Assembly (NCBI GenBank): GCA_964394145.1
Contig: CAYMVL010000025.1
Coordinates: 96,493 to 160,492, forward strand
DNA from: an uncultured Dehalococcoidales bacterium
GTDB lineage: Bacteria; Chloroflexota; Dehalococcoidia; GIF9; AB-539-J10
Direction of reading: 5' to 3'
DNA: 64,000 nt
Positions 3,420 to 34,504 of this stretch are shown one piece after another (positions within the stretch are counted from its first letter, which is position 1; each line of letters begins with the position of its first letter). The notes beneath the pieces were generated by a model. The model made no database searches, had not been told where the DNA came from, and saw only the letters and a list, made by a program, of their open reading frames with translations. The position numbers and the translations under genes were made by a program.

Positions 3420-3975
3420 TTTTACCTCCCACCGATTTATGAGTTAAAGACGCCTTGCATGGCACTCCGTGTTGGGAATTTCCCGCTTTGGCAGGCAGCA
3501 GTGGCAGCTGATTTGCCGGCGTCACAGTGCCACCCATAGCCAGATTATCCACTGCTTGTTTCAAGGTACCGATGTCGGCGAATTCCCGATAGACGCTAGC
3601 GAAGCGAATGTACGCTATATGGTCCAGTTTCTTCAAGCCCTCCATCACCAGGTCACCAATGAAGGAAGTAGCAACTTCAGCTTTGCCCGTGTTGTAAAGT
3701 TCGGACTCTATGCTGTCTATAAGCTTATCAATGGCACCGGTAGGGAGGGGCCGTTTCTCACAGGCTCTGTGAATACCAAGCGAGAGTTTTTCCCGGTCGA
3801 ATACCTCACGACGGCCCTCTTTCTTAATGACAAATATACTCCGCATCTGTATGCGTTCATGTGTGGTAAAGCGACCTCCACAGGCAAGACATTTCCTTCG
3901 CCGCCTCACAAAGCCGTCCAGATCCCTCGAATCTATAACCCTAGACTCCTGACCACCACAATAAGGACACCTCAT
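3412..3975 (-). CDS. nrdR: transcriptional repressor NrdR
   Basis: N-terminal zinc ribbon MRCPYCGGQESRVIDSRD...CLACGGRFTTHE and an ATP-cone region. It is 187 aa, about 35 aa longer than typical, and overlaps the nrdJ start by 8 nt. Confidence 0.9.
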   Translation of the reverse strand: MRCPYCGGQESRVIDSRDLDGFVRRRRKCLACGGRFTTHERIQMRSIFVIKKEGRREVFDREKLSLGIHRACEKRPLPTGAIDKLIDSIESELYNTGKAEVATSFIGDLVMEGLKKLDHIAYIRFASVYREFADIGTLKQAVDNLAMGGTVTPANQLPLLPAKAGNSQHGVPCKASLTHKSVGGKNG

Positions 3976-20519: not shown

Positions 20520-21434
20520 ATGAAGCTCAAGAGAGCATTGAAATACATAAGGGAGGGTGATTTCGCATCCCCCTGGGCCTGGTTCGCAGCAAAGACCTTT
20601 TGGCCACTACTTCACAGAGACCTGGGCACAGGAAAAGCTGTAAGAGTCATGGAACAGGATTGGGACTACTTGATTGTGCTGGATGCCTGTAGATATGACA
20701 CATTTAAAGAAGTAGTAGACGCCCAGGCGGGGTGCGTTATATCCGGGGGAACCCATACTCAGGCATGGCTGGAATGGAACTTTAGACAAGAGTATCGGGA
20801 TGTTATATACGTAGCGGGCAACCCTCATTTTGCCACCGCATACCTAAAGAAGACTCTGGGATTTAACCCCTTCTACATGGTGGAAGAGGTTTGGGACTAC
20901 GGATGGGATGACAGCCTCAAGACGGTGCCTCCGGAGCAGGTGACCAATGCAGCACTCAAGACGCTGAAAACCTACCCTGAAAAGAGGATGATAGTCCACT
21001 ATATGCAGCCTCACCATCCCTATATAGCCGACAGACAGCTTCTGGATGCAGATGACGGAACCTACCGCGGCTTCGAGGACACTGGTAGATGGCCGGAACA
21101 GATAACACCACTAAGACTGGCCAGAAGGGGCAAGGTTTCCATTCATAGAGTCAAGAAAGCGTACGAACAAAACCTGAGAATAGTAATGAAGGAAGTGGAA
21201 CGGCTTAAGGAATGGTTGCCTGGGAGAGTCATCTTGACGGCAGACCATGGAGACCTCTTTGGGGAACAGGGACTTTACGGGCACGGGACGAATTTGAGGG
21301 TAGACGCCCTGGTAAAAGTGCCCTGGGTGATTCTGAAAGACGAGAAGAGACGACGGGCATCTGGAGAACCCGGCGGTGAGAGGACGAGAGTTAGAGCCAA
21401 GATAGTGGACCTCAAACGATCAGGCAGGTTATAG
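20520..21434 (+). CDS. alkaline phosphatase superfamily (sulfatase-like core) protein
   Basis: LIVLDACRYD metal-site motif near the N-terminus and TADHGDLFGEQGLYGHG near the C-terminus. It is shorter, at 304 aa. Confidence 0.6.
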   Translation: MKLKRALKYIREGDFASPWAWFAAKTFWPLLHRDLGTGKAVRVMEQDWDYLIVLDACRYDTFKEVVDAQAGCVISGGTHTQAWLEWNFRQEYRDVIYVAGNPHFATAYLKKTLGFNPFYMVEEVWDYGWDDSLKTVPPEQVTNAALKTLKTYPEKRMIVHYMQPHHPYIADRQLLDADDGTYRGFEDTGRWPEQITPLRLARRGKVSIHRVKKAYEQNLRIVMKEVERLKEWLPGRVILTADHGDLFGEQGLYGHGTNLRVDALVKVPWVILKDEKRRRASGEPGGERTRVRAKIVDLKRSGRL

Positions 21435-22970
21435 AAACCTGCGCAAGATTTTCTTAATAGAAGATAAATTGAGGCCCGCCCTCTTCTCCATTGCCAGAAG
21501 CATGGTTATGTCCTCCTTGTCAAAGCTCCTGGTAAACAGGATAGCCAGGCCATACACGACATAGTAGAGGATGAACAGCAAGGGGAGCATCCACCAGACT
21601 ACAGCCACGAAGTCCTCAAGAATGAATTTGAACAGGAACACCAGGGCTAGAGAAACCAGGGTTGGCTTGAGCAGCTTCCTGCTCAGGGGCTGCGCCCCGC
21701 TCAGTGTGTAAAGCTTCCGGTAACTTAGCACGTTAATCGACGTTATGGCAGCTACGGAAGCAATAGCGGCTCCTTCTATGCCAAAGGGCGGAATCAAGGC
21801 AAGGTTCAGCCCGACATTTAGGACGGCACTTGCCAGGGTAACCCACATGATAAACCTGACCTGCCCCATGGCAATCAGGGTAGCCCCGTTAGGCCCCAGG
21901 AAATTGTTGACGATGTAACCTACGGACAGAATTTTGAGGGCTGTCGCTGCCGGAGCATAGCTTGTGCCAAATAGAAAAGCGAGCACGGTTTCGGGAAACA
22001 GGAAAATGATAAAGAACAGTGGTAATGTAGCCGAGCATAACCACTTGGTGAGAACGGAAAAATTCCTCCTCATTTCAGCCATTGAACCTTGGGCGTAGAG
22101 GCCCGACGCAACCGGCATATAAATGGATAGCATGGCCACCAGCGGGCTTGAAATGAACTGTGCCAGGGGATGGGCGGCGTTATAGAGCGCGACATCCACT
22201 GAGCTCCTCATTGCCCCCAGCATCAGGGTATCCGTCCAGGCAATAATCAGGTGAAGCACGGCTATCCCGAGCAAGGGAAGCGAGAATGAGAGAAGCTGCC
22301 CGGCTACGGGGTTTGCACTCAGCGCGGTGCGCAATCCCACGGGGACGGGGAGCCTTTTAGGGGCATAGAGTATGAGAGCCACACAGGATATGACCATGGC
22401 AGCCAGGTGCGCATAGAACACGTGATTAAAGGGCAAATGGAGCAAAATAACAGGCAGAAGAAACAGTAGCAGAAGCAAGTTCCTGAGAATATCCCGGAAG
22501 TAAACAGCAGGCTTCACGTCATCAAAGCCCCTGAATACGGAAACAAATACATATATCAGCGTGAAAAACGGTATGGCGAAGGCGAATATTTTCAGCGGAA
22601 CAGCAAGAGCAGCATCGTGAAAAACTCCGCTGGCAATGATATCCGAAGTAAAGAAGACGATGATGCCCAGGGCAATGCCTGCTATAAGAGCAAACTGAAT
22701 CGAGGCGGGAATCAGCTTCTGGATCCTTTGATTATCGTTTTGGCCCCGGGCATAGGCGATGCTTCTTGTGACCCCTTCCTGCAAGCCCAGCGCGGCAATT
22801 ACGGCACAGATGTTGAGTATAACGAAGGCCAGGGAGAAAACTCCGTAATCAGCTTCCGTCCCGTACCTGGCAATTATCAGCCTGGCGATAAAGGCAAGAA
22901 ACAAAGCTGCTAAGGAGCCCGTGAAAGCTATCCCTGTGCCTTTGGTGATTTTTACCAGCGAAGCGTCCAA
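21429..22970 (-). CDS. polysaccharide biosynthesis protein / oligosaccharide flippase (Wzx/MOP family)
   Basis: 12-14 TM helices with the MOP-flippase N-terminus LVKITKGTGIAFTGSLAALFLAFIARLIIARYGTEADYGVFSLAF. There is no in-frame ATG near the N-terminus. The likely start is TTG at 22970 (AGGGTG upstream) or GTG at 22979. The track ORF runs to 23090. Confidence 0.7.
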   Translation of the reverse strand: MDASLVKITKGTGIAFTGSLAALFLAFIARLIIARYGTEADYGVFSLAFVILNICAVIAALGLQEGVTRSIAYARGQNDNQRIQKLIPASIQFALIAGIALGIIVFFTSDIIASGVFHDAALAVPLKIFAFAIPFFTLIYVFVSVFRGFDDVKPAVYFRDILRNLLLLLFLLPVILLHLPFNHVFYAHLAAMVISCVALILYAPKRLPVPVGLRTALSANPVAGQLLSFSLPLLGIAVLHLIIAWTDTLMLGAMRSSVDVALYNAAHPLAQFISSPLVAMLSIYMPVASGLYAQGSMAEMRRNFSVLTKWLCSATLPLFFIIFLFPETVLAFLFGTSYAPAATALKILSVGYIVNNFLGPNGATLIAMGQVRFIMWVTLASAVLNVGLNLALIPPFGIEGAAIASVAAITSINVLSYRKLYTLSGAQPLSRKLLKPTLVSLALVFLFKFILEDFVAVVWWMLPLLFILYYVVYGLAILFTRSFDKEDITMLLAMEKRAGLNLSSIKKILRRFL

Positions 22971-23086
22971 TCTAGTCACCCTGGTTCGTTGTGTTATTTT
23001 GCTTCCGTTGAGATTATAGCTTTTCTCCTTTACGAAAGGAATGGGGTACGGGAGATATAATCTGCAGGGACCGCTGCTGTAAGTGA

Positions 23087-23863
23087 TCAACTGGTGGAGG
23101 ATAACAGGGCGTAAAATACGTCCTGCGGCTTATCTATCCGGTAGTCCATATTGACAGTTATCAGCAGGGCGTTCTCATGGTGATCGCCCTTGAGCCTTCC
23201 CCCGGCTGTCTGTTCTGGCAGAGTCTGCACTTCGGCTTCGCCAAAGGAGCAGAAGCCATGGTCGGAGATTATAATCAAGCTGTTGCTCTTGTCGCCGAGA
23301 AAACCGCTATCGAAAAGAAGTGCGCCAATCTTCTCGTCCAGTTTCCGGTACCATTCCAGGACGCAATCCTCACCCCAGTGGAAGTGCTGGATGCGGTCAA
23401 GCAGCGTGTAGACGGAGATGAGCAGATCGGGCCCTTCCGCCAGGAGTTCGGCTGTCTTCCCGGTGACCCTTTCCAGTTCTTGCTGCCACTCTTTATCGTT
23501 TGTGGGAAGACCAAAGCCCACAGGTTTGAAATCCACATTGAAGGAATAGGAGGGGACAACAAAGGGAACATTCAGCGCCTTTACCCTCTTGCCCTCCCTG
23601 TGGAGGATATCCCAGATGAAGTCCACTTTGATGTCTTCCCGCCTGACGATATTTCCATCAACCGCGTAACTGTGATGTCCATGCTCCTCTGGAGTCTTGC
23701 CAGAGAACATGCCACACCATATGGAGGCGGAGAATAGCTCCTGTTTGACGACAAGCTCGCGACATCTTCCTGTATCACAGAGCTTCCTGAAAGTGCTGAG
23801 CCTGTCCAGGTTTGGCCTAATGACCGTCCAGGTAGCAGCATCAATACCGAGAACGAGAATCAT
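23087..23863 (-). CDS. alkaline phosphatase family protein (type I phosphodiesterase/nucleotide pyrophosphatase-like)
   Basis: [11 protein letters not shown]-terminal metal site and IIISDHGF C-terminal site. Its ATG overlaps the cysN stop as ATGA. Confidence 0.7.
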
Positions 23864-25068
23864 CTGCCCGCCTCCAGGACTACCCCTGCTCCAATGTTCC
23901 TATCGTTCACCAGAACGAAGCGCCCAAGCTCAGGAATGTCGGAGAACTTTTCCACCACCAGGGGTTCGGTAGCGAAGAGTATTGTCGCTGCCTCATTTTC
24001 GCTTATCACTGCCGGGTATTTCTCCACAACTTCGCCCGTCTCAGAATTTATTCTCTCCCTTATTTCCTTTACCTCACAGCCTACCCTTGCCGTTCCACAC
24101 CTCAATTCAAGTTTGTCCCCCCTTCTCAAATTCCTTTCCAGCAATACAGCCTCGCCGATGAACTCCTTTACGGGTGTCGGCGGGGATGCCAGAAGACCGC
24201 AAACATCACCCCTGCTCACTTCGCCGTCCACTACAATTCCCACGCTGTCTCCCCGCTCTGCCTCAAGCAACTCGCCCGCGAAGTCCTTCATCCTTTTAAT
24301 TTCCGCCGCAACGCCCGAAGGTTGGAAGATAACCCTGTCCCCTTTCTTCAGCGTACCGGACTCTACCCTTCCTACAACGACCCTGTCGGAGTCAACCCCG
24401 TATGTATCCTGGACGACAAACCTGAGCGGCCTCTGTTCCTTGCTCACCACCACTCTGTCCAGAGTCTGAATCAAGGTGGGTCCTTCGTACCATCTCATCC
24501 GCCGGGACGGCTTGTAGATGTTATCCCCCTCCATAGCCGAGGCAGGCATAAAAGGTACATCGCGATAACCAAGCGAGCTCAGGAGCTGAGTTACCTCAGC
24601 CTTGATACGACCAAAGACCTCAGCGCTATAGTCCACAGCATCCATCTTGTTTACCAGGACGAAGAGTTGCTTTATGCCCAGCATGTGTATCAAGAAAGCA
24701 TGCCTTCCCGTCTGCTCCTGGATGCCTTCATCTGCGGCCACTACCAGAACAGCCACGTCGGCATGAGAAGCGCCGGTGAGCATATTCTTTATAAACTCCT
24801 TATGCCCCGGCACATCCGTGATGGAATAGAGGTTCTTCTGGCCCTTAAACATGACTCCCGTGGTATCTATGGTGCGCTCCTCTTTCAGCTCGTCGTCAAA
24901 CGAGTCAATAAAGTAGGCGAACTCAAATCTCTTCTTGTACTCCTCAGCCAGCTTCTGAATCTCCTCCACCCGCCCCTCGTTTATGCTCTCGGAGTCGTAA
25001 AGCAACCTCCCTATTAAGGTGGACTTGCCGTGGTCCACATGGCCTGTGATGACTACATTTACATTCAT
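23860..25068 (-). CDS. cysN: sulfate adenylyltransferase subunit 1 (GTPase, CysN/NodQ family), no APS-kinase domain
   Basis: [14 protein letters not shown] and NKMD G-motifs. It is 402 aa, so only the EF-Tu-like GTPase and beta-barrel domains are present. Confidence 0.85.
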
Positions 25069-25135
25069 AACTGTACCCTCCTAGAAATCAAAATTTAAAC
25101 GCTAAAATTCAAAAAGACAATGCGAAATTTAAAAG

Positions 25136-25507
25136 TCATCTCTTGCCTCTTAGCGTCAAAATGCTCGCAGCGATGACACTGGCAATCTCCGTCAACTCTT
25201 CTAGAAGCTTCTGACTTAGCTCCTTTTCAGATTTGCCAGAGTCTTGTAACAGCCCCAGCCAGAATTTTGTCTCATTGGCTGATTTTAAGGCGTGGGCAAA
25301 GAAATTAGTGTAGTCCTTATTCGAAACAGCACCTTGAGCCTCAGCCATATTTGCCCCGATGCTGGTAGCACTCCGTAGTAACTGGTCACCAATAATCCTT
25401 GATGTCTGGTCCTTCGGCAGTTGTTCGATAAACCGGATAACATCCAGAGCAAATTGATATACCCGCTGCCTAAACTCGTCTTTAAACTTCAATCTCGCAT
25501 TTTGCAT
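25136..25507 (-). CDS. four-helix-bundle protein (23S rRNA intervening-sequence protein / Avd-like family)
   Basis: QFALDVIRFIEQLPKDQTSRIIGDQLLRSATSIGANMAEAQGA...FAHALKSANETKFWL matches the TIGR02436/PF05635 family pattern. Flanked on both sides by AT-rich low-complexity sequence. Confidence 0.8.
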   Translation of the reverse strand: MQNARLKFKDEFRQRVYQFALDVIRFIEQLPKDQTSRIIGDQLLRSATSIGANMAEAQGAVSNKDYTNFFAHALKSANETKFWLGLLQDSGKSEKELSQKLLEELTEIASVIAASILTLRGKR

Positions 25508-25533
25508 TTTTGTTTTTAATTTTTGGATTTTGT

Positions 25534-26334
25534 TTACATATATCCTAACGCCCTCAGCTTCTGCATGGTGAAAGCCTTCTCCTTGTCCTGTGCTCTGCCG
25601 GACCTTTCCGCAATCCTGGTCGTCCTCAGCTCCTCGACTATCTCATCGATGGTGCTGGCGTTGGAGTCGATGGGGAAGGTGCATGGCTCACATCCCAGGC
25701 TCCTGTACCTTTTCCCATTTTTGGCAAAATACATGGGGTTCACGGGAAGTCCTTCCTCCCTGACGTATTCCCAGACATCCAGCTCCCGCCAGTGCAGAAT
25801 CGGATGCACTCTGGTGTGCGTCCTGTCATCAGTCGTAGCCTGGTACTGGTCCCACATCTCCAGCGGCTGGTTCTTATAGTCCCATCTGAAGTCCTCATCC
25901 CGCGGGGAGAAATACCTCTCCTTGGCTCGTATGCCATGCTCATCCCTCCTTATAGCCAGGATAAGGGCATCGAATCCATTCTTCTCCAGGCATTGCATCA
26001 GGGCCTCCGTTTTCAACCTGGTGCAGCATTCAAACTTTCCGTCCTTGGGGCCCACCCCCTGTGCAATCGCCTCTTCATTTCTGGCTACCACCAGGTCCAG
26101 GCCCCATTCTCTGGCGATCCTGTCCCTGAACTCATACATCTGCTTGAATTTATACGTAGTATCGATGTGAATTACAGGGAAGGGAATCTTGCCGAAAAAG
26201 GCCTTGCGACAAAGCGAGAGAGCGGCGGTGCTATCCTTGCCTGTGCTCCACAGGACTGCCGGTCTCTTGAACTCGGCATAGGCCTCCCTTATTATGTATA
26301 TGCTCCGATTTTCCAGCTCCTTCAGTTCTAGCAT
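25534..26334 (-). CDS. cysD: sulfate adenylyltransferase subunit 2 (CysD)
   Basis: PAPS-reductase-like fold (AVLWSTGKDSTAALSL, HIDTTYKF). The ATG at 26334 is preceded by an AGGAGGTG SD. The track start, a GTG at 26343, lies inside that SD. Confidence 0.85.
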   Translation of the reverse strand: MLELKELENRSIYIIREAYAEFKRPAVLWSTGKDSTAALSLCRKAFFGKIPFPVIHIDTTYKFKQMYEFRDRIAREWGLDLVVARNEEAIAQGVGPKDGKFECCTRLKTEALMQCLEKNGFDALILAIRRDEHGIRAKERYFSPRDEDFRWDYKNQPLEMWDQYQATTDDRTHTRVHPILHWRELDVWEYVREEGLPVNPMYFAKNGKRYRSLGCEPCTFPIDSNASTIDEIVEELRTTRIAERSGRAQDKEKAFTMQKLRALGYM

Positions 26335-26360
26335 GGTAATCACCTCCTGATAATTCGTTA

Positions 26361-27158
26361 TTAGAAGACAAATGCCTTAGCTAGGGTCGCTGCCCCTAGC
26401 AGGCATGTGACTCCCCCGATAAGCAATTTTAGCCTGTCAGAACCTAACCTTTTAACCGTCATAGCTGCAAATGGCGCTGCTATAACTGAGCCTATGGCAG
26501 CAGCAGCGACGAGCGTCCAGTATACATCGCCTTTGAGCAACAGATACGCCAAGAAACTCACAGCGCAAACAATAGTGACTGCAACCGTGGTGCTCCCAAC
26601 AGAGTTCTTTACCTCCCGTCCGCTAATTATCTGCCCGCCTGTCACCAGCGGAATGTACCCTCCTCCACTTATCCCCTTGTTAAAAGAGCTTAAGATTCCT
26701 ATCCCGATAAGCCTTTTCCACGAAAGCGCTCCTGCCCTGCTCCTGCGCATGAGGACCAGTATTCCCACCGCCAGGACCATCACCCCTATGTAAATTTCGA
26801 GAGCAAGCTCCGGGATATTCATAGCACAGACCACACCTGTAAGGCCGCCAATCACCCCACAGATGGCCAGAGTGAATACGACCTTAGCATCTTGGGACCT
26901 GGGCAGATAACCCAGTCCTCGCAACCTCTCTTTTATCAACCTGTCATCCCGTCTGAAATCCAGACTTATGTTCCTCACCCGGTGGTGTGCAACCCCTCCA
27001 ATTAAACCACCCGCAAACTGGCTTAACAATACCGCCGGGATAACCTGCAAAGGGGCGAATCCCATGATAAGAAGCACGGGCGCCAGAGCAGTCCCATAAC
27101 CCAGTCCCACGGAAATGCTCATATACTGGAACAAAAGAGCAAACAAGGCTACAGCCAT
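26361..27158 (-). CDS. TauE/SafE family sulfite/sulfonate exporter-like membrane protein (DUF81)
   Basis: 265 aa with 8 TM helices and two repeated halves. Glycine-rich TM motifs typical of DUF81. Confidence 0.75.
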   Translation of the reverse strand: MAVALFALLFQYMSISVGLGYGTALAPVLLIMGFAPLQVIPAVLLSQFAGGLIGGVAHHRVRNISLDFRRDDRLIKERLRGLGYLPRSQDAKVVFTLAICGVIGGLTGVVCAMNIPELALEIYIGVMVLAVGILVLMRRSRAGALSWKRLIGIGILSSFNKGISGGGYIPLVTGGQIISGREVKNSVGSTTVAVTIVCAVSFLAYLLLKGDVYWTLVAAAAIGSVIAAPFAAMTVKRLGSDRLKLLIGGVTCLLGAATLAKAFVF

Positions 27159-27191: not shown

Positions 27192-27410
27192 CTAGTCCAG
27201 ATAGCCCAGAGCCTTGAGCCTCTTCTTTACCTCCTGCTCGTCTTCCTCGCTGAAGCTCCTGTCGCTCTCTTCTTCCTTGACAACTTCTTGCAGCACAAAT
27301 TCAACGTACTCATCCACCGACCCGAAATCAGTAGCCTTCACTCTTTCCTCCACCTTCCGGTAAAGCTCGGCAGGCAAAAACACAGCCTTATTCTCTGCTT
27401 TTTCTGTCAT
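27192..27410 (-). CDS. ribbon-helix-helix (CopG-like) small protein
   Basis: 72 aa (MTEKAENKAVFLPAELYRKVEERVKATDFGSVDEYVEFVLQEVVKEEESDRSFSEEDEQEVKKRLKALGYLD). AAGGAGGT SD 12 nt upstream. Its ATG overlaps the stop of the upstream paralog as ATGA. Confidence 0.6.
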   Translation of the reverse strand: MTEKAENKAVFLPAELYRKVEERVKATDFGSVDEYVEFVLQEVVKEEESDRSFSEEDEQEVKKRLKALGYLD

Positions 27411-27619
27411 AGATAGCCTAACCTCCTTAATCTTTCTCTGATTGCTCTTACCTCTTCCTCGGTAAGCCTGTCCCCTCCCTTTATCTCGCCGCTGGATGCC
27501 AGATTGCGCATAACAAAGATGATGAATTCCGTCACGCTGGAGAAGCCTGTCCCTTTTATCATCTGCGTCAGGCTCAGATAAAGCTCCCTTGGTATCTTGA
27601 TGGTGACCCTGTCTCCCAT
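27407..27619 (-). CDS. ribbon-helix-helix (CopG-like) small protein, paralog of 27192-27410
   Basis: MGDRVTIKIPRELYLSLTQMIKGTGFSSVTEFIIFVMRNLASSGEIKGGDRLTEEEVRAIRERLRRLGYL. Same beta-strand/helix pattern and C-terminal RLxxLGYL motif. Confidence 0.6.
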   Translation of the reverse strand: MGDRVTIKIPRELYLSLTQMIKGTGFSSVTEFIIFVMRNLASSGEIKGGDRLTEEEVRAIRERLRRLGYL

Positions 27620-27679
27620 AACACCCCAATTAGAGTGCAATTGTACTGCAGCATCCCCCCTCGATGCAAGAGCTGTGGC

Positions 27680-27926
27680 AGGCTGCCCAAGCTGGGCCTA
27701 AGCAATCCCGGGGCAGCCATGAGATTGCCGCGCTTCGCTCGCAATGACATGCCATTTTGTCGTTGCGAGGCTGGCCAGACCAGCCGAAGCAATCTGAGGG
27801 GCCAGCGATGGGATTGCCGCGCTTCGCTCGCAATGACATCCCGCTTTGTCGTTGCGAGGCAGGCAAAGCCAGCCGAAGCAATCCCGGGCCAGTGATGAGA
27901 TTGCCACGCTTCGCTCGCAATGACAT
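27680..27926. repeat. tandem array (~2.8 copies) of an 87-89 bp unit, each containing a 12-bp hairpin
   Basis: Units at 27719-27807, 27808-27894 and 27895-~27926 (truncated), plus a partial unit at 27680-27718. The unit begins atgRgattgccgcgcttcgctcgcaatgacat. The inverted repeat ctcgcaatgaca / tgtcgttgcgag allows one G-U pair. It lies between the rfbD stop and the RHH gene start. Confidence 0.8.
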
Positions 27927-27963: not shown

Positions 27964-28833
27964 TCAGGCTATGTGCCCTCTGGCAACCAGGTAATGCTTG
28001 AGCGCTTCCTGCCAGGGCCTCATGTCATCCAGGCCCAGGAGCCGCAGGTGGTAATTGTCCAGCACGGAGTAGCCGGGCCTTATGGCTTTCTGGGGATACC
28101 GGTCTGAGCTTATCGGAATTACCGGGGTCCTCAAGCCCGCCAGCTTCAGTATCTCTCCGGCGAATTCGTACCAGGAACAGGAGCCCCTGTTGGTGATATG
28201 GAATATGCCATAGTATTCGGTCTGGAGAATCTGGGCTATCTTCCCAGCCAGGTCGCCGGTATAGGTGGGGGAGAATACCTGATCATTGACCACCTTGATT
28301 TCGTCGCGCTCTCCGGCCAGCCTGAGCATGGTTTCGATGAAGTTGCCGCCTTTGCCGCTGGAGCCGGCCAGGCCGAAAAGCCCCGAAGCTCTGATGATGA
28401 AGTGCCTGAGGCAAAGATGGCGGACAAGGTCTTCCCCGGCCAGCTTGGACTTGCCGTAAACGCTGAGGGGGACAGGCGTCTCGAATTCGGTGTAGGGGGT
28501 GCTTCGTGGCTCAGCATTACCGCCGAAGACGTAGTCGGTGCTGAGATGTATCAGCTTAGCGCCGAGTTCCTGCGCGACCACCGCGACATTGCGGGCTCCC
28601 AGAGCGTTCACCTGGAAGGCTTTCTCCTTTTCGTCTTCGCAGTCGTCAACGCGAACACAGGCGGCGGTATTGATGATGACATCAGGATTGCGCTTGAGCA
28701 TGGCTCCCCTGACGGAAGCCATGTCGGCAATTTCGATATCGGTATGGGTAAGGGGAATGACATCGAAGTCATGCAGGGCCCGGCACAGATCAGTGCCCAG
28801 TTGTCCGTTAGCGCCTGTTACTGCTACTTTCAC
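27964..28833 (-). CDS. rfbD: dTDP-4-dehydrorhamnose reductase
   Basis: KVAVTGANGQLG Rossmann motif and RmlD topology. The GTG start at 28833 overlaps the rfbB TGA stop as GTGA. The longest ORF, to 28893, would overlap rfbB by 64 nt. Confidence 0.85.
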   Translation of the reverse strand: MKVAVTGANGQLGTDLCRALHDFDVIPLTHTDIEIADMASVRGAMLKRNPDVIINTAACVRVDDCEDEKEKAFQVNALGARNVAVVAQELGAKLIHLSTDYVFGGNAEPRSTPYTEFETPVPLSVYGKSKLAGEDLVRHLCLRHFIIRASGLFGLAGSSGKGGNFIETMLRLAGERDEIKVVNDQVFSPTYTGDLAGKIAQILQTEYYGIFHITNRGSCSWYEFAGEILKLAGLRTPVIPISSDRYPQKAIRPGYSVLDNYHLRLLGLDDMRPWQEALKHYLVARGHIA

Positions 28834-29834
28834 CTTTTGAGGTACATTTCCTCGTAGTATCTTGAGTATTCGCCGCTCTTGATTGACTGCCACCAGGACC
28901 GGTTGTTCAGATACCAGTCAACAGTAGCACCCAGGGCTCCTTCAAAGGTGTAAGCCGGCTTCCAGCCCAGCTCCGCAGTTATCTTGGTGCAATCGAGGGC
29001 GTAGCGGCGGTCGTGGGCGGGACGGTCGGAGACGAATTGTATCAGGCTCTGCGGTTTTCCCAGTAACTCCAGCAACCTGTGGATAAGCTCCAGGTTGCTC
29101 TTCTCATTGCCGCCGCCGATATTGTATATCTCTCCCGGCCGGCCTTTCTGAAGCACGGCATTGAGAGCCCGGCAGTGGTCGTTTACAAAGATCCAGTCCC
29201 TGACATTGAGGCCATCGCCGTACACGGGGACCGGCTTATCCTCCAGAGCGTTGGTGATAGCCAGCGGGATTAGCTTCTCGGGAAACTGGTATGGTCCTAA
29301 GTTGTTAGTACAGCGGGTGATGATTACCGGGACATGGTGGGTCCTGAAGTAGGCAAGAGATAAGAGGTCGGCAGCAGCCTTGCTGGCTGAATACGGGCTG
29401 CTGGGTGACAGAAGCGATTGCTCATCGAAGCGGCCAATATCAACAGAGCCGTAGACTTCATCAGTGGAGACCTGGACAAATCTCCCGATCCCGTGCTTTT
29501 TTGCCCCTTCAAGGAGCACCTGAGTCCCCTTAACATTGGTCTCAATGAATGGAGAGGCGTCCATGATGCTGCGGTCAACGTGGCTCTCGGCGGCACAATT
29601 CACAACGAAATCAAAGCCCTCACCGAGCAACCTATCTACCAGCTTCCTGTCAGCTATATCACCTTTGATGAAACGGTAGCCGGGCCGGCCTTCCATATCC
29701 TTTAAGTTCTCCATGTTGCCGGCATAGGTGAGCTTGTCCAGATTGCTTATCTCCCAGTCGGCATGTTCTTGCCGGATATGGCGAATGAAATTAGAGCCGA
29801 TGAAGCCGGCGCCCCCGGTGACCAGTAGCTTCAT
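28830..29834 (-). CDS. rfbB: dTDP-glucose 4,6-dehydratase
   Basis: MKLLVTGGAGFIGSNF... and a YSASKAA catalytic motif. The ATG at 29834 is preceded by GGAGGAGG and overlaps the rfbC stop as ATGA. Confidence 0.9.
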   Translation of the reverse strand: MKLLVTGGAGFIGSNFIRHIRQEHADWEISNLDKLTYAGNMENLKDMEGRPGYRFIKGDIADRKLVDRLLGEGFDFVVNCAAESHVDRSIMDASPFIETNVKGTQVLLEGAKKHGIGRFVQVSTDEVYGSVDIGRFDEQSLLSPSSPYSASKAAADLLSLAYFRTHHVPVIITRCTNNLGPYQFPEKLIPLAITNALEDKPVPVYGDGLNVRDWIFVNDHCRALNAVLQKGRPGEIYNIGGGNEKSNLELIHRLLELLGKPQSLIQFVSDRPAHDRRYALDCTKITAELGWKPAYTFEGALGATVDWYLNNRSWWQSIKSGEYSRYYEEMYLKR

Positions 29835-30400
29835 TTCGCCTCCTCCATGTAGTGAAACCGGATATCGGCATCCCTCAGAGCGGGCCATTTTTCATCTTTT
29901 GCGGATAAAATAGGGTCTTTAACAGGCCACTCGATATTCAGCTCTGCATCATTCCAGATAATACCGGCTTCAGATTTGAGTGAGTAAACATCGGTGGTCT
30001 TATATATCACTTCGGCAATGTCCGAAAGAACACAGAAACCATGGGCCAGTCCTGCCGGGATATAGAGCATATTCCTGTTTTCCTCCGACAGGACTACACC
30101 CACCCATTTGCCCCGCGCAGGCGAGCCCTCTCTTATGTCAACGGCGACATCAAATATCTCGCCCCTTACCACCCTGACCAGCTTCCCCTGCGCGAAAGGC
30201 GGCTTCTGATAATGCAGCCCCCTGAGAACGCCTTTGCTGGAACGGGAGTGGTTCTCCTGGACAAAAGCCGCCTTTATGCCACCAGCAACGAAGTCCGGCA
30301 TCTTGTATGTTTCCATAAAGAAACCCCTGCCGTCTTCAAATACCTCTGGCTCTATCAGGACCAGTCCTGGAATATCTAGCGTCTTGAAAGCGAATGGCAC
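29831..30400 (-). CDS. rfbC: dTDP-4-dehydrorhamnose 3,5-epimerase
   Basis: RmlC cupin (GLVLIEPEVFEDGRGFF, RGLHYQ). GTG start at 30400 with an AAGGGAGAGG SD. Confidence 0.9.
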   Translation of the reverse strand: MPFAFKTLDIPGLVLIEPEVFEDGRGFFMETYKMPDFVAGGIKAAFVQENHSRSSKGVLRGLHYQKPPFAQGKLVRVVRGEIFDVAVDIREGSPARGKWVGVVLSEENRNMLYIPAGLAHGFCVLSDIAEVIYKTTDVYSLKSEAGIIWNDAELNIEWPVKDPILSAKDEKWPALRDADIRFHYMEEAK

Positions 30401-30420
30401 GTAAAACCTCTCCCTTGCTG

Positions 30421-30530
30421 GTTCAATAGTTCAATGGTTTCATGGTTCAATAGTTCAATAGTTCAATGGTTCAATGGTTTCATGGTTCAATCGTTGTTGG
30501 TTTTTTGGTTGCTGGTTTGCTGGTTCTTAA
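30421..30530. repeat. 8-nt periodic simple repeat (GTTCAATR) x9, decaying into GTTGYTG-like units
   Basis: gttcaatagttcaatggtttcatggttcaatagttcaatagttcaatggttcaatggtttcatggttcaatcgttgttgg... fills the rfbC to four-helix-bundle-gene spacer. The degenerate part encodes the C-terminal KPATKKPTTIEP tail of the four-helix-bundle protein. Confidence 0.8.
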
Positions 30531-30878
30531 GTAGCGAATGAAACCCTGTAACATCCTGGCAACTTTGCTGCATTGCTCCGTTAATGAGTCGAATTGATTA
30601 CCACTAATGTAATGCAAATCCAAAGCGGCGTAAAGTTGGGATTGAGCCTCTGCTGTAGAACGTAGAGAATAGCCCAGGAAAGTTGTAAATTCTCTGTTCG
30701 ATTGACACATAAAACCTTCGGCAATATTGGACATAACAGATATAACAGCCCGCTGAATTTGATCTCTCAACTCTCGGTCATTTTTGAATGGTGCTTTATT
30801 AGTGGCTTCATAAACCATCTTAACCAGTAACCTTGCCTCTCTCCATGCCTCTATATCCTCAAATCGCTCAATCTTCAT
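30480..30878 (-). CDS. four-helix-bundle protein (23S rRNA IVS protein / Avd-like family), second copy
   Basis: MKIERFEDIEAWREARLLVKMVYEATNKAPFKNDRELRDQIQRAVISVMSNIAEGF...STAEAQSQLYAALDLHYI, the canonical TIGR02436 pattern. Inserted between rfbA and rfbC. Confidence 0.8.
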   Translation of the reverse strand: MKIERFEDIEAWREARLLVKMVYEATNKAPFKNDRELRDQIQRAVISVMSNIAEGFMCQSNREFTTFLGYSLRSTAEAQSQLYAALDLHYISGNQFDSLTEQCSKVARMLQGFIRYLRTSKPATKKPTTIEP

Positions 30879-30887
30879 TAACTCTCA

Positions 30888-30935
30888 AACTATCTAACCA
30901 TCAACTATCTAACCATGTAACTATCTAACCACCCA
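30888..30935. repeat. about 3 tandem copies of a 15-16 nt unit ACTATCTAACCAYSW
   Basis: aactatctaaccatca / actatctaaccatgta / actatctaaccaccca fills the entire rfbA-stop to four-helix-bundle-start spacer. Confidence 0.7.
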
Positions 30936-30943
30936 ACCATCCC

Positions 30944-32035
30944 CTACAGCTCCACTCTGGCATCGTCGCCGACGAAAAGCCTCAGCGCCTTCAATGTCTG
31001 CCTGCCTTGTGTTACCTCGGTGCCCCGGCCTATAACGCTATCAGCCAGGCGCTCGATTCCAGAGATACGGCATCTCTCCAGTATCACCGAGTGCCCGATG
31101 GACGACCCCTCTATCACAGTACCCGCTCCAACGCTCGTGAAAGGGCCGATGAATGAATTCTTAACCTTACAGTCCTGATCTATGGAGACCGGCCCCCTGA
31201 TGGTGCTGTTTTCTATGCTTGTCCCTTCTCTGATTTCGACTCTGCCGGCCACCTGGCTGCCGGCATCAACCTCACCCCTCAAGTCGCGCTTTACAAATTC
31301 ATCAAGTACAACGCGGTTAGCTTCCAGCAGGTCGTCTTTCTTGCCCGTATCCAGCCACCAGCCTGTGAGGATATGGCTTCGGACCTTCTTGCCGGAATCA
31401 ATGAGCTGCTGGATGGTATCGGTTATTTCAAGTTCTCCCCGCCAGGAGGGTTCTATCCTCTCTATTGCACGGTGCACTTCTCCTGTGAAAAGATAAACGC
31501 CGGGCACTGCCAGATTTGTCTTCGGCTCGCGTGGTTTTTCCACAATGCTGGTTATCTCGCCTCTCTCGTTTAGTTCGGCAACGCCGAACAGACGCGGGTC
31601 TGGGACCTCTTTAAGCAGGACAAGCGCATCAGCCCTGTTTGTCGTAAACTCCTGAACAAAACTCCTGACGCCGCCCTGAATAAGATTGTCGCCAAGAAAC
31701 ATCAAGAAGGCAGAATCGCCCAGGAAGTCCCGGGCTGTCTTCACAGCATGGGCAAGCCCCAGAGGTTCGGATTGTAAAATGTAAGTAATTTGGGCATTCC
31801 ACCTTGAACCATCGCCCACAGCTTCCTTTATCCCCTGCCCCGTTTCCGGTGAAATAATAATTCCGATATCGTCTATCCCGGCTTCAGCGACCTGCTCCAA
31901 AACATAATACAGTATGGGCTTATTAGCCACCGCAATAAGCTGTTTCGCCAGAGTGTTGGTTAGGGGCCTGAGCCTGGTGCCCTTGCCCCCGCAGAGGATA
32001 ATAGCTTTCATGCCGGACAGGCGCTGCTCGTTCAT
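30944..32035 (-). CDS. rfbA: glucose-1-phosphate thymidylyltransferase, long form with C-terminal left-handed beta-helix domain
   Basis: N-terminal [11 protein letters not shown] nucleotidyltransferase motif. It is 363 aa with a C-terminal hexapeptide-repeat region ([20 protein letters not shown]...). An alternative ATG at 32011 gives MKAIILCGG. Confidence 0.85.
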
Positions 32036-32122: not shown

Positions 32123-34504
32123 TCACGACCCGGCTGGCCTGACATACTCAAAGATCTTTATCTGCGGTGAACTGTGACCTGCCAGCGTCGCCGTGGCAGG
32201 AGATTCATAGACTATCCTGTAGCTGTGCAACTCCTCCAGAGGCACAGCGCTGGCGAAGGGATCGGCGCTCACTATGCGCTGCTCTCCCGGCTCCTGGCTC
32301 GACATATACGCCTCTGCCTCGCCATAGCTGGAAAATGACTCTACCTTGGTGATTATCTTGTAGTCTGTCCCCTCCTGGCTGACCACCCGGTAAGAGATAA
32401 CAAGTATCTGCCCGGGCAGCTGAGCCTTAGCATCAAAGTTGTAAAGCCTGACCACCATAGAATTATAATAGGCAGGATAGAACAGGGTTATCTGCTCCAG
32501 TTTGCCGTCTCCGCTTTCCTGATAATAGGTGTCGTAGAACTCGTCCTGGCTCCCTCCCACCCACTGCGGCATGGCATAGAACTTGGAGCTGGCCATAGCA
32601 TGGTCAATTATTATGTATTTTGAGCCGACCTTGTCCATCATTTCCCCGGCTGAATCCTCGTCCTGAGCAAGGAAGAAGTGCGCCACATTCTGGACACCCT
32701 GCTGAAACGGGTTGGAAACGGGTATACGGTGGGCGATGCGGCTTATCCAGTGACCGTAGTCCCACCAGGAGAGTACGCTATAGGCGGTATCGGGGTACTG
32801 AAACGGTGTCTCATATAGCTGATAATAGGCATCAGGGTCGTCAAAGGGCTCAGGGCTATTAGACTTGAGCCACTCAAGCGAGCTATGCCACGCCTCGGTG
32901 ATGAGAAGTGGATTCCGGGCAATTGCCTCAGCTTTGCTGAAATTGGGGAAGAAGATAAGAAAGAAAAGGGCTACACCGGTCAGGATTACCCTGACCCGAA
33001 GAATCTTGCGCTGCCGCAGCGCCCTCACGTCCACCCGCCCCTCAACTCTCCTTTTCTGCTTTGCCTTCCTTGTTTGTACGTAATCTTTGACCAGATCAAC
33101 AGGCTCAGCCAGTAACTGTTTCAGCCCGGCGAAATCCAGGACCCTCCAGGCGAAATATCCTGCCAGCAAAGCCGCATTTACGGCGAAATAATAGCTGAAG
33201 CGGCGCTGCCCCAGAACGGCTACCAGCATTATCAGGCTCCATACCAGGAACAGCGTTTTATCTGGGCTCTCTTCCTTGATGCTGCGGTAAATCAGCCAGC
33301 CAAACGATATGAAGCAGATAAAGAAAGAGGTGGTGAAGTTGACCCAGGCTATCCTGAGGGAGAATGTGCCGTACGGCAACAGTAAAGGCTGCATCTCCAG
33401 TATGGTCAGGGCAGCACCGGCAGGGCTGAAGATGCTAAATCTAGCGAGCATTGAGTGGAGCAAGGCTGGATTAGCGGCATGAAAGATAGCAAGACCGATG
33501 CCGGCAAGCGCGGCCAGCGCTACAGGATAGAAGAAAGGCCTGACGCCTTGCCGGGTCATCACTCTGGAAATGCCGCTCAAGGCTACGGGCGCCAGTATGG
33601 CAACCAGGAAGGAGGCGGTATAGATAGAACTGAGCTGGTGTGCGGATAGATAAGGGAGATTGATTATAAGGGAGACAAGGAAAACCAGCACTCCAATCAT
33701 ACACAGGTAATCGGTTGATTTACCCCGCACGTGGTCTATGATGAACTGAATTAGCAGCCAGGCAGATATGATGAAGATAAGCAGCAGACCACCCACCCAG
33801 GTGAGAAGATAGATGCCCAGGAAGATGCCGGCAACTAAGGCATAAATGAGGGGCTTGATTACTTTGTTGCGCTCCCCTGTCCTCCCCCCTGAATGCAGAG
33901 GAAAAAGATGGTTGAAGGATATCTCTCTTTCTTTGAATTTCTTTACCGCCAGTATCAGGAATAGTATAGTCACAGCAGAGAATAAGCTCTCGGCCACATG
34001 GTGGTCCGCAAAGCCAAGCAGCGAGCGATTCAGAAATTCACCCGGCAGTACGGCCACCAGGCCCGCAGCGACTACACCCACCCAGCGATTGAATAGCTGC
34101 CTGCCTATGAAATAGACCGGAACAATCGTTACGGCAGCGAGAATGGGTGGAAGATAAGCTCCCGCTAAATCTATGCTGTGCTGCGACGGCGAACCCAGGT
34201 CAAGCAGCCAGGCGAAGCCGCCTACAAGCCAGTCAAAGAAGGGGGGCCAGGGCACCATGGTGCCACTGGGATAGTAGGTATAGGGGTCAAAAGCGATGCG
34301 GTGGGGAAAGTGCTGCAACAGGTTATCCACCAGCCTCATGTGGTACCAGGCATCGGTGCCTTGAAACCACACCGAGCCATGGCCAAAAACGTTGTCATAG
34401 GGCAGGGCTATACGAATATATAGAGAAATCCCGGCTATGATGAGCAGGGCTATGGTAACGATAAGGGATGGCCGGAGGCGACTTCTATTCACCTGAGTCG
34501 ACAT
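32123..34504 (-). CDS. aglB: oligosaccharyltransferase, STT3/AglB/PglB family (GT-C fold)
   Basis: 793 aa with about 13 N-terminal TM helices and a C-terminal periplasmic domain carrying the diagnostic WWDYGHWI motif. A downstream MMDKVGSKYIIID segment resembles the DK/MI motif. First gene of the 13-kb minus-strand cluster. Confidence 0.85.
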   Translation of the reverse strand: MSTQVNRSRLRPSLIVTIALLIIAGISLYIRIALPYDNVFGHGSVWFQGTDAWYHMRLVDNLLQHFPHRIAFDPYTYYPSGTMVPWPPFFDWLVGGFAWLLDLGSPSQHSIDLAGAYLPPILAAVTIVPVYFIGRQLFNRWVGVVAAGLVAVLPGEFLNRSLLGFADHHVAESLFSAVTILFLILAVKKFKEREISFNHLFPLHSGGRTGERNKVIKPLIYALVAGIFLGIYLLTWVGGLLLIFIISAWLLIQFIIDHVRGKSTDYLCMIGVLVFLVSLIINLPYLSAHQLSSIYTASFLVAILAPVALSGISRVMTRQGVRPFFYPVALAALAGIGLAIFHAANPALLHSMLARFSIFSPAGAALTILEMQPLLLPYGTFSLRIAWVNFTTSFFICFISFGWLIYRSIKEESPDKTLFLVWSLIMLVAVLGQRRFSYYFAVNAALLAGYFAWRVLDFAGLKQLLAEPVDLVKDYVQTRKAKQKRRVEGRVDVRALRQRKILRVRVILTGVALFFLIFFPNFSKAEAIARNPLLITEAWHSSLEWLKSNSPEPFDDPDAYYQLYETPFQYPDTAYSVLSWWDYGHWISRIAHRIPVSNPFQQGVQNVAHFFLAQDEDSAGEMMDKVGSKYIIIDHAMASSKFYAMPQWVGGSQDEFYDTYYQESGDGKLEQITLFYPAYYNSMVVRLYNFDAKAQLPGQILVISYRVVSQEGTDYKIITKVESFSSYGEAEAYMSSQEPGEQRIVSADPFASAVPLEELHSYRIVYESPATATLAGHSSPQIKIFEYVRPAGS

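Follow-up and report, generated by a model that had tools for sequence, protein, structure and literature searches.

We analysed a 64,000-nucleotide stretch of DNA from an uncultured Dehalococcoidales bacterium, referred to here as the window. A gene for a 123-residue four-helix-bundle (4HB) protein, termed hb1, is located at positions 25136–25507 of its minus strand, between the sulfate adenylyltransferase genes cysD and cysN. The gene had been noticed in a preliminary description of the window, and both its open reading frame (ORF) and the family models confirmed it. We found that hb1, which starts with ATG, is enclosed by two arms of an imperfect inverted repeat. Together, the ORF and the arms form a cassette of about 450 bp (25084–25533), which starts immediately past the cysD stop codon and ends before the ribosome-binding site of cysN. 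We consider it rather likely that this is a promoter-less PF05635 4HB gene with inverted arms of approximately 8-nt A/T-rich tandem repeats, a unit in an operon spacer that resembles the intervening sequences (IVSs) of rRNA genes. The cassette is old, non-fixed and probably once mobile, and not a cluster-specific gene. No rRNA gene is present in the window, and the cassette does not have the helix 25/45 location in 23S rRNA; for this reason it was classed as an IVS-type cassette at a site of a new type, not as a strict rRNA IVS.

The spacer between cysD and hb1 is 26 nt long (25508–25533; GC 0.154, 85% A+T), and the one between hb1 and cysN is 67 nt long (25069–25135; GC 0.284, 72% A+T). The GC content is 0.53 in the flanking genes and 0.498 in the window, in agreement with the background of about 50% given in the preliminary description. 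The same description had placed both spacers at 75–85% A+T. The 85% value and the quoted motifs were found, but the other spacer stays at 72%. Its label of AT-rich low-complexity DNA was right as to composition, but inverted repeat arms is the better description. The A/T-rich spacers go beyond mere low complexity, for they form the opposing arms of an inverted repeat that is imperfect: the segments 25089–25133 and 25481–25525, 45 nt each, are 71% complementary.

The 5' arm (25481–25533, minus strand) was delineated by the inverted repeats, by Tandem Repeats Finder (TRF), by homologous arms elsewhere and as one side of the 35-pair stem described below. It consists of the 26-nt A-rich spacer ACAAAATCCAAAAATTAAAAACAAAA and the ~27 nt with which the ORF begins, ATGCAAAATGCGAGATTGAAGTTTAAA. 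This arm, which has no Shine–Dalgarno sequence, thus takes in the hb1 start codon and roughly the first nine codons. TRF detected a period of 8 with 4.4 copies at 25500–25531, that is, short tandem repeats upstream of the ORF, as in Coxiella. The 3' arm (25084–25135, minus strand) is T-rich (CTTTTAAATTTCGCATTGTCTTTTTGAATTTTAGCGTTTAAATTTTGATTTC), lies past the stop codon and is reverse-complementary to the 5' arm. Its sequence is conserved among orthologues, among paralogues located elsewhere and among the remnants that have lost the ORF. The arm consensus matched the window only at the hb1 3' arm, and no additional arm copies or solo hairpins were found in the window. The 72 exact matches to a 17-mer arm core in viral collections were dismissed as chance, since none had a 4HB gene in its vicinity. 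The ribosome-binding site of cysN, GGAGG, is retained immediately beyond the 3' arm (25077–25081, minus strand; read from the sequence). This motif is the counterpart of the entire short spacer (e.g. GGAGAATT) at the empty sites L004, L006 and L008 (related loci carry L numbers).

The inverted flanks were assessed by local alignment of the 5' flank with the reverse complement of the 3' flank, using dinucleotide shuffles as the control. For hb1, the score corresponded to z = 3.95, and 1 of 300 shuffles was as high. For hb2, the second 4HB gene of the window, z was 7.9, and none of the 300 shuffles reached it. Significant inverted flanks were obtained for 22 of 25 family members, which come from many contigs and represent at least five arm-sequence types. 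Random window positions (n = 60) scored at most 19, and the elements scored 21–70. The arm sequences are wholly different between the subfamilies; nonetheless, each 5' arm matches its own 3' arm, as in the pairs AAAATGCAAAATGACAA and TTGTCATTTTGCATTTT, GAATGTTGAATG and CATTCAACATTC, AATTCTGAATTCTGAATG and CATTCAGAATTCAGAATT, and AGGTCTTAGGTCTTAGG and CCTAACACCTAAGACCT (5' and 3', respectively). At the sequence level, the flanking inverted repeats are thus able to enclose the ORF in a stem, as in IVSs.

A consensus stem was calculated with RNAalifold for 8 hb1-type elements from five genomic sites. It joins the arms through 35 pairs, and 88.6% of the cells were paired, as compared with 32–66% when the partners were slid by 1–3 columns. 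Compensatory double changes were found in 8 stem pairs, a number reached by 2 of 500 shuffles, and the stem covariation score was 0.197 versus 0.151±0.014. The thermodynamic tests gave weak results for the AU-rich hb1 type because shuffled A-rich and T-rich halves still pair. Therefore, reverse-complement alignment scores and pair counting were used instead.

A metagenome scan with hb1 yielded at least 20 loci, and this census is a sample. The identical protein was present on 10 contigs, in the cysD–cysN context only. Homologues with 80–87% identity (L063, L064, L066) likewise lie between cysD and cysN, as do all homologues at least 80% identical among the matches listed. At 72–73% identity, homologues were found downstream of an ABC-transporter ATPase gene (L068–70) and between tldD and pmbA (L071–74). 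Hb1-type arms accompany the 72–77% identical ORFs at these unrelated junctions. In an alignment covering cysD–cysN, the ABC-ATPase site, tldD–pmbA, L046 and L047, homology extends ~25 nt upstream and ~35–60 nt downstream of the ORF, and the cross-site similarity ends at the host genes. The cassettes begin within a few nucleotides of the upstream stop codon wherever that stop is identifiable. Compared across sites, the ORF and the arms evidently move as one unit. The earlier suggestion of a mobile family is supported indirectly by this recurrence, for a family that is mobile or once was. Members of the same family have also been described between cmr3 and cmr2 (PMC3936711) and between gmk and nadD (PMC5524665).

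The second gene of the window, hb2 (132 residues; 30480–30878, minus strand), matches PF05635 and TIGR02436 as hb1 does, in agreement with the single family assumed in the preliminary description. Its cassette (30413–30943, minus strand) is situated between rmlA and rmlC. The 5' arm (30879–30943) contains GGTTAGAT/AGTT 8-nt repeats, and the 3' arm (30413–30479) contains AACCATTG/AACTATTG repeats reaching into the 3' end of the ORF. These arrays of 8-nt units pair over 45 nt at 73%, and TRF counted 6.5 repeat copies upstream and 9.6 downstream. Homologues at least 78% identical occupy the rmlA–rmlC junction in L075–L079, and a 68% identical one with the same arm type is found between an aminotransferase gene and hflX in L080–82. 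The two proteins of the window share 27% identity over 84 residues (E 2e-8). With this low identity in the pairwise alignment, unrelated arms and orthologues of each at its own site, the proposal of two independent insertions stands, and hb2 appears to be a cassette independent of hb1. No third family copy was found among all six-frame ORFs of the window with phmmer.

A third 4HB type was observed between rmlC and rmlB in other loci (L076, 3600–3965; L077, 3604–3969; also L078 and L079). It encodes 121 residues, matches PF05635 with 131 bits and gives a weak match to bAvd. The L076 copy has its own arms, AGGTCTTAGG... and ...CCTAAGACCT, with z of 16. For the L077 copy (L077b), the inverted flanks were not significant in the tested interval.

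We then turn to the history of the cysD–cysN junction, surveyed in 35 loci encoding cysD relatives and in others reached via 4HB homologues. The two genes had been presumed to be adjacent normally, and in this gene-cluster family they are: 11 related loci have spacers of 8–21 nt, essentially just the Shine–Dalgarno sequence of cysN. The preliminary view of hb1 as an insertion into a normally tight junction is thereby confirmed. An intact cassette is present in the window, L063, L064, L066, L043 and L044. L009 has an intact 4HB gene that is only 59% identical and has different repeats. The gene is frameshifted or truncated in L018, and in L049 a deletion fused its N-terminus to the C-terminal domains of cysN. 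In L001, an internal deletion left both arms together with the first ~27 and the last ~17 nt of the ORF. Two-arm hairpin remnants of 139–171 nt remain in L003, L025 and L028, and the 5' arm alone in L007, L027 and L032. Other occupants also occur. In relatives from ANME-1 (anaerobic methanotrophic archaea), the spacer holds an MntA–HepT toxin–antitoxin pair, in which MntA is an NTP_transf_2 protein and the HepT-like partner is a HEPN RNase (L011, 1078–1938; L015, 6826–7703; L022, 6823–7747). Internal-deletion remnants of this pair were found in L016 (1163–1514) and L026 (6811–6891), and unrelated hairpins in L005 and L035.

In a neighbour-joining tree of cysD, these states are scattered across the Dehalococcoidia-type and ANME-1-type clades, between which the arms are homologous. 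None of the three outgroups of the tree shows a cassette or remnant: the junction is empty in two, and the 190-nt spacer of L034 is unrelated. The simplest history, as read from these comparisons, is a single old insertion carried along with the cluster, with repeated decay and loss afterwards and at least one replacement (L009). The insertion is evidently old but not fixed, since it has been lost, reduced to ORF-less hairpins, frameshifted and replaced. In the preliminary description, a conserved arrangement with orthologous flanks was to indicate an old fixed gene rather than an insertion. The insertion is indeed old and has orthologous flanks in clusters of both the Dehalococcoidia type and the ANME-1 type, yet it has not become fixed. 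Taken together, these states mark the junction as a place where small selfish cassettes repeatedly land or are retained.

Further inserts were observed at or near this junction. In L043, an ANME-1 contig, cysD (5–1723) encodes 572 residues with an in-frame insertion of about 390 residues. The insertion gave a weak LAGLIDADG match (19.8 bits, below the cut-off) and is a probable intein. The same contig carries an IS110-family transposase gene (2242–3279) in or just past the 3' arm of the 4HB cassette. In L066, an extra ORF of 160 residues (2981–3463; weak DUF4760 match) lies between the 4HB cassette and cysN, preceded by an apparent duplicate of the cysN 5' end (ATGAATCTAAATGTGATGATCACAGG...); it is another insertion at cysD–cysN. 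The spacer of L035, a Dehalococcoidaceae contig, contains a 239-nt GC-rich palindromic repeat element (289–527) that is highly structured, with a minimum free energy (MFE) of -92.6 kcal/mol (z -5.1), and has no relation to the 4HB arms. In L005, the 170-nt spacer (2736–2905) is a different AT-rich hairpin with the motifs CTAAGCACGAA... and ...TTTAGATATT..., which recur outside the hb1-type arms at tldD–pmbA (L071, ~2400–2500 and ~2930–2960). The shared motifs may represent a second, older arm layer or a nested element.

To describe the selection on the ORF, we use the ratio of nonsynonymous to synonymous divergence (dN/dS), which was 0.06–0.15 for intact hb1-type ORFs, indicating purifying selection. 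For the same genome pairs, dN was 0.03–0.11 for the 4HB gene, 0.04–0.10 for cysD and 0.08–0.14 for cysN. The low dN/dS and the dN values similar to those of the neighbours suggest that the 4HB protein is translated and constrained where it survives. Despite this constraint, whole lineages do without the gene. The dS of the 4HB ORF was below that of both flanking genes in 6 of 6 genome pairs (window, L063, L064, L066); for L063–L064, it was 0.31 versus 1.04 and 1.86. A constraint from RNA structure or composition, or the exchange of cassettes between lineages, are possible causes.

Several results weigh against the reading of hb1 as a once-mobile cassette with a pairing transcript. No target-site duplications were seen by eye at five hb1-type insertion sites, no transposase, recombinase or reverse transcriptase (RT) was associated with the cassettes examined, and no near-identical cassette copies were found at two sites of one genome among the sampled loci. 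For want of a duplication, a mobilising enzyme or near-identical copies, mobility is deduced from distribution only. Significant inverted flanks were missing in the tested interval of 3 of the 25 elements (L009, L061, L077b). The consensus stem was derived from, and then tested on, one set of 8 related sequences, and the RNAalifold covariation term was slightly unfavourable (+0.98). The MFE of the whole hb1 cassette was not significant (z = -0.5), and the MFE z values of the ORF-less remnants ranged from +0.4 to -2.1. The arm duplex of hb1, at -35.3 versus -27.0±4.1 kcal/mol, showed a modest excess, with 9 of 200 shuffles equally good. Finally, the purifying selection and the vertical co-divergence with the flanks fit a host-useful gene too.

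Such a host-recruited accessory gene is the first alternative, and we regard it as improbable. The glycan/sulfation cluster would have captured the 4HB protein, for example as an RNA chaperone or as a regulator of the cysD:cysN ratio, and the arms would serve the host as an element between the cistrons that governs RNA processing or stability. Selection equal to that on the flanking enzymes, and co-divergence with them, would be expected of such a gene. The confinement of orthologues at least 80% identical to cysD–cysN among the matches listed agrees with it as well, and the arms have outlasted the ORF in L001, L003, L025 and L028, where the RNA element itself could be useful. This account is contradicted by the 11 related clusters that do without the 4HB gene, by its scattered presence over the cysD tree and by close paralogues with the same arms in functionally unrelated operons. 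Moreover, cysD–cysN also accepts MntA–HepT, IS110 and other inserts, and hb2 in the same cluster is only 27% identical and has different arms. Recruitment for a cluster-specific function had been one of two options in the preliminary description; it loses ground to the absence of the gene in these 11 clusters, its decay in at least nine and the presence of MntA–HepT in its place in three.

The MntA–HepT pairs in the same spacer of L011, L015 and L022, and what is left of them in L016 and L026, bring in a second alternative, an addiction or defence module, which we also hold to be rather unlikely. Here, the 4HB protein would be a single-gene stress, toxin-like or anti-phage factor retained through addiction or episodic selection, with operon spacers acting as sinks. 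Purifying selection when the gene is present and frequent loss otherwise would suit such a module. The family has been reported inside cas operons (PMC3936711) and as enriched near genes of diversity-generating retroelements (DGRs) and immunity (PMC10053308). Against this, the PADLOC models gave no credible match (JetC only, E 0.014), no partner gene was found, and the inverted repeat arms are left unexplained. For the Coxiella homologue, the influence of its expression on the growth of E. coli has been examined (PMC4990558).

An integron-type cassette, or a miniature inverted-repeat transposable element (MITE), moved by a known recombinase or transposase is very unlikely. The arms would then act as attC-like sites or as terminal inverted repeats. 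An ORF that has no promoter but is flanked by imperfect inverted repeats would match, as would the MITE-like ORF-less derivatives, and GTTAGAT, the repeat unit of hb2, coincidentally conforms to the integron core GTTRRRY. However, the ORF separates the two arms, which do not form a single downstream attC hairpin, and the hb1 arms have no GTTRRRY/RYYYAAC cores. No integrase was found in the window, no intI or transposase gene lies nearby, and no target-site duplication was seen. The arms also differ wholly between the subfamilies, unlike the binding sites of a single enzyme.

The protein itself bears on the remaining alternative. Hb1 matches PF05635 (23S_rRNA_IVP) with E 3.6e-23 and 82.3 bits (cut-off 33.8) and TIGR02436 ("four helix bundle protein") with 95.8 bits (cut-off 24). 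The RxxxSxxxNxxE motif, conserved in the family (PMC3936711), reads RSATSIGANMAE in hb1 and RAVISVMSNIAE in hb2; across 29 sequences, no variation was seen at S49, N53 and E56, and conservation of R45 reached at least 90%. The AlphaFold model (pLDDT 93.5) contains helices at residues 2–28, 34–58, 63–90 and 95–119, forming an up-down four-helix bundle like those of BT_0352 and Xcc0516. A sequence search of the PDB returned 2RLD (BT_0352) with E 9e-15, and Foldseek returned 2RLD with TM scores of 0.80–0.90 and 2GSC (Xcc0516) with 0.78–0.86. Both crystal homologues have five chains; hb1 was modelled as a monomer. No relative of hb1 was found in the viral collections, and in PHROGs hb2 alone gave a match, a weak one.

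An orphan DGR remnant, in which hb1 is an Avd protein left after the loss of the RT and of the template and variable repeats, is extremely unlikely. The Avd fold is shared (Foldseek TM 0.71–0.84 to 4DWL and 8UB7 at ~12% identity; 0.75–0.84 to 4DWL), and the PHROGs match of hb2 is to "Avd protein of DGR" (3.4e-8), but the closest structures are the non-DGR proteins BT_0352 and Xcc0516. The NCBIfam model DivGenRetAVD (NF033474) is not matched by hb1 and reaches 16.5 bits for hb2, far from its cut-off of 80. We found no RT domain in ORFs of at least 150 residues in the 64-kb window or in the contexts of the homologues, and the identical architecture occurs at many junctions without an RT. The DGR link raised in the preliminary description finds no support.

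For the IVS-type cassette, which we prefer, the following mechanism can be proposed. Read-through from the operon promoter would transcribe the cassette, and the arms would pair in the transcript to a long imperfect AU-rich stem enclosing the 4HB message and its start codon, which has no Shine–Dalgarno sequence. By analogy with rRNA IVSs, this stem is probably a substrate of RNase III. A cut by RNase III would excise the 4HB message and separate the cysD and cysN messages, of which cysN would retain GGAGG. By homology with the pentameric BT_0352, Xcc0516 and Avd, the 4HB protein is a predicted ring-forming nucleic-acid binder. Its predicted targets are the repeat arms of its own cassette or RNA, and probably not sulfate activation.

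A wider version of this proposal is put forward tentatively, as a reading that we regard as improbable. PF05635 genes and their arms may form a large unrecognised class of autonomous mini-elements in rRNA helices and operon spacers across bacteria, which reach archaea with transferred clusters and have no known transposase, recombinase or RT. The pentameric ring might read its own 7–8-nt repeats, one unit per subunit, much as ring proteins like the trp RNA-binding attenuation protein (TRAP) recognise repeated triplets, for RNA excision or stabilisation or for copying, by way of DNA or RNA, into junctions right after stop codons.

The genes around the cassettes belong to a long co-directional array on the minus strand, which occupies about 21.4–34.5 kb of the window according to the ORF calls and profile models. 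In the direction of transcription, it comprises an AglB-type oligosaccharyltransferase (32123–34504; archaeosortase-A-associated AglB/STT3 type, 705 bits), rmlA (30944–32035), hb2, rmlC (29831–30400), rmlB (28830–29888), rmlD (27964–28893), small ORFs called as one of 145 residues (27192–27629; no Pfam or NCBIfam match), a TauE-family exporter (26361–27158), cysD (25534–26343; sulfate adenylyltransferase small subunit, NF003587, 343.6 bits, cut-off 195), hb1, cysN (23860–25068), a phosphodiesterase (PDE)-family protein (23087–23863) and a flippase (21429–23090). The cysN product, the downstream host protein, is a GTPase of the CysN/EF-1alpha type and would be the sulfate adenylyltransferase large subunit. 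Its name leans partly on context, as it scored 291 bits with the CysN model versus a curated cut-off of 336. It has no APS-kinase domain and is the conserved partner of cysD in 29 related loci. No promoter-like or terminator-like sites were found by a scan of 24800–25800, which gives no support to a role of the arms as the promoter of cysN. Rfam (the window at the gathering threshold, 23.5–32.5 kb at E <= 1) returned four tRNAs and nothing else.

Other features of the window were recorded alongside. It encodes bacterial-type topA, alaS, aspS, trigger factor (tig), ClpP, DprA, holA and elongation factor P, and the closest cysD relatives come from metagenome-assembled genomes (MAGs) of Dehalococcoidia. 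In this bacterium, the region 9485–34504 is an archaeal-type N-glycosylation island, which also holds an AglJ-like glycosyltransferase, a DUF2206 membrane protein, two sulfatase-family proteins and the sulfate-activation genes. The proteins of the cysD/cysN/PDE module are about 75–82% identical to those of ANME-1 (Methanophagales) MAGs, which suggests an inter-domain transfer of the N-glycosylation/sulfate-activation cluster. In place of the 145-residue ORF, two small genes of 70 and 72 residues are called in relatives. They are conserved partners of the sulfate-activation module and precede tauE/cysD in almost every related locus of Dehalococcoidia and ANME-1. A tandem repeat (27696–27926) that separates the small ORFs from rmlD has an 89-nt unit, 2.6 copies and 84% match and contains GTCATTGCGAGCGAAGCGCGGCAATC-type palindromic motifs. 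It has the look of an intergenic repetitive extragenic palindromic (REP) sequence and no Rfam match.

The nature and spread of rRNA IVSs and their "S23p" ORFs have been a question since the early 1990s, and the locus described here shows a unit of ORF and arms in mRNA operons. A single junction offers a natural series of empty, intact, frameshifted, ORF-deleted hairpin and arm-only states, from which selection, decay and boundaries can be measured. With the hb1 sequence alone, HMMER detects 7,432 clusters at 50% identity, so the family is very large, and if its members share the cassette architecture, the annotation of many genomes would be affected. Genes annotated as "four helix bundle protein" in cas, polysaccharide or sulfate operons should not readily be taken as functional partners. 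In the literature, with subscription-only papers outside the search, we found no description of the flanking-repeat architecture outside rRNA, of ORF-less remnants or of an empty/filled polymorphism.

Among known systems, the free-standing TIGR02436 genes (BT_0352, Xcc0516) give the best sequence and structure match to hb1. They also sit between co-directional genes, cas or housekeeping (cmr3–cmr2, gmk–nadD), but have been treated in papers as ordinary or "associated" genes. The MntA–HepT cassettes of the ANME-1 relatives occupy the same spacer and decay there by internal deletion, but they consist of two genes of an unrelated fold family and have no repeat arms. The remnants L001, L003, L025 and L028 resemble REP hairpins, bacterial interspersed mosaic elements (BIMEs) and MITEs in being 140–170-nt intercistronic hairpins derived from a larger element. 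Unlike in those, the parent element encodes a 4HB protein and not a transposase, and no REP-associated tyrosine transposase (RAYT) or other transposase is linked to it. The Avd proteins of DGRs, of which the characterised one is a small basic RNA-binding pentamer, share the four-helix-bundle fold and a family-level homology, and Avd binds RNA stem-loops (bioRxiv 10.1101/2023.10.23.563531). In contrast to these, hb1 has no nearby RT or template and variable repeats, falls outside the curated Avd model and, at ~12% identity, is structurally nearer to the non-DGR members 2RLD and 2GSC.

ORF-bearing 23S rRNA IVSs, whose ORF is known as S23p, are hosted by Leptospira, Coxiella, Xanthomonas and Brucella. 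The Coxiella IVS has 428 nt, a GC content below that of the host and tandem heptamers directly upstream of its PF05635 ORF (PMC4990558). Its Shine–Dalgarno sequence is poor, and its inverted repeats form a stem cut by RNase III; the ORF carries deletions in some strains, is reported to be decaying and probably untranslated, and its origin and mobility are unexplained (PMC4990558). Unlike this IVS, the hb1 cassette lies between the protein-coding genes of an mRNA operon and not in helix 25/45 of 23S rRNA, and its ORF is under clear purifying selection, as opposed to the decaying ORF of Coxiella. Excision by RNase III is known for the Coxiella IVS and predicted for the hb1 cassette. The two nevertheless share a PF05635 ORF, a similar size (about 450 bp versus 428 nt), a GC content below that of the host, 7–8-nt tandem repeats upstream of the ORF, a weak or absent Shine–Dalgarno sequence, flanking inverted repeats, a sporadic distribution and deletions of the ORF in some lineages.

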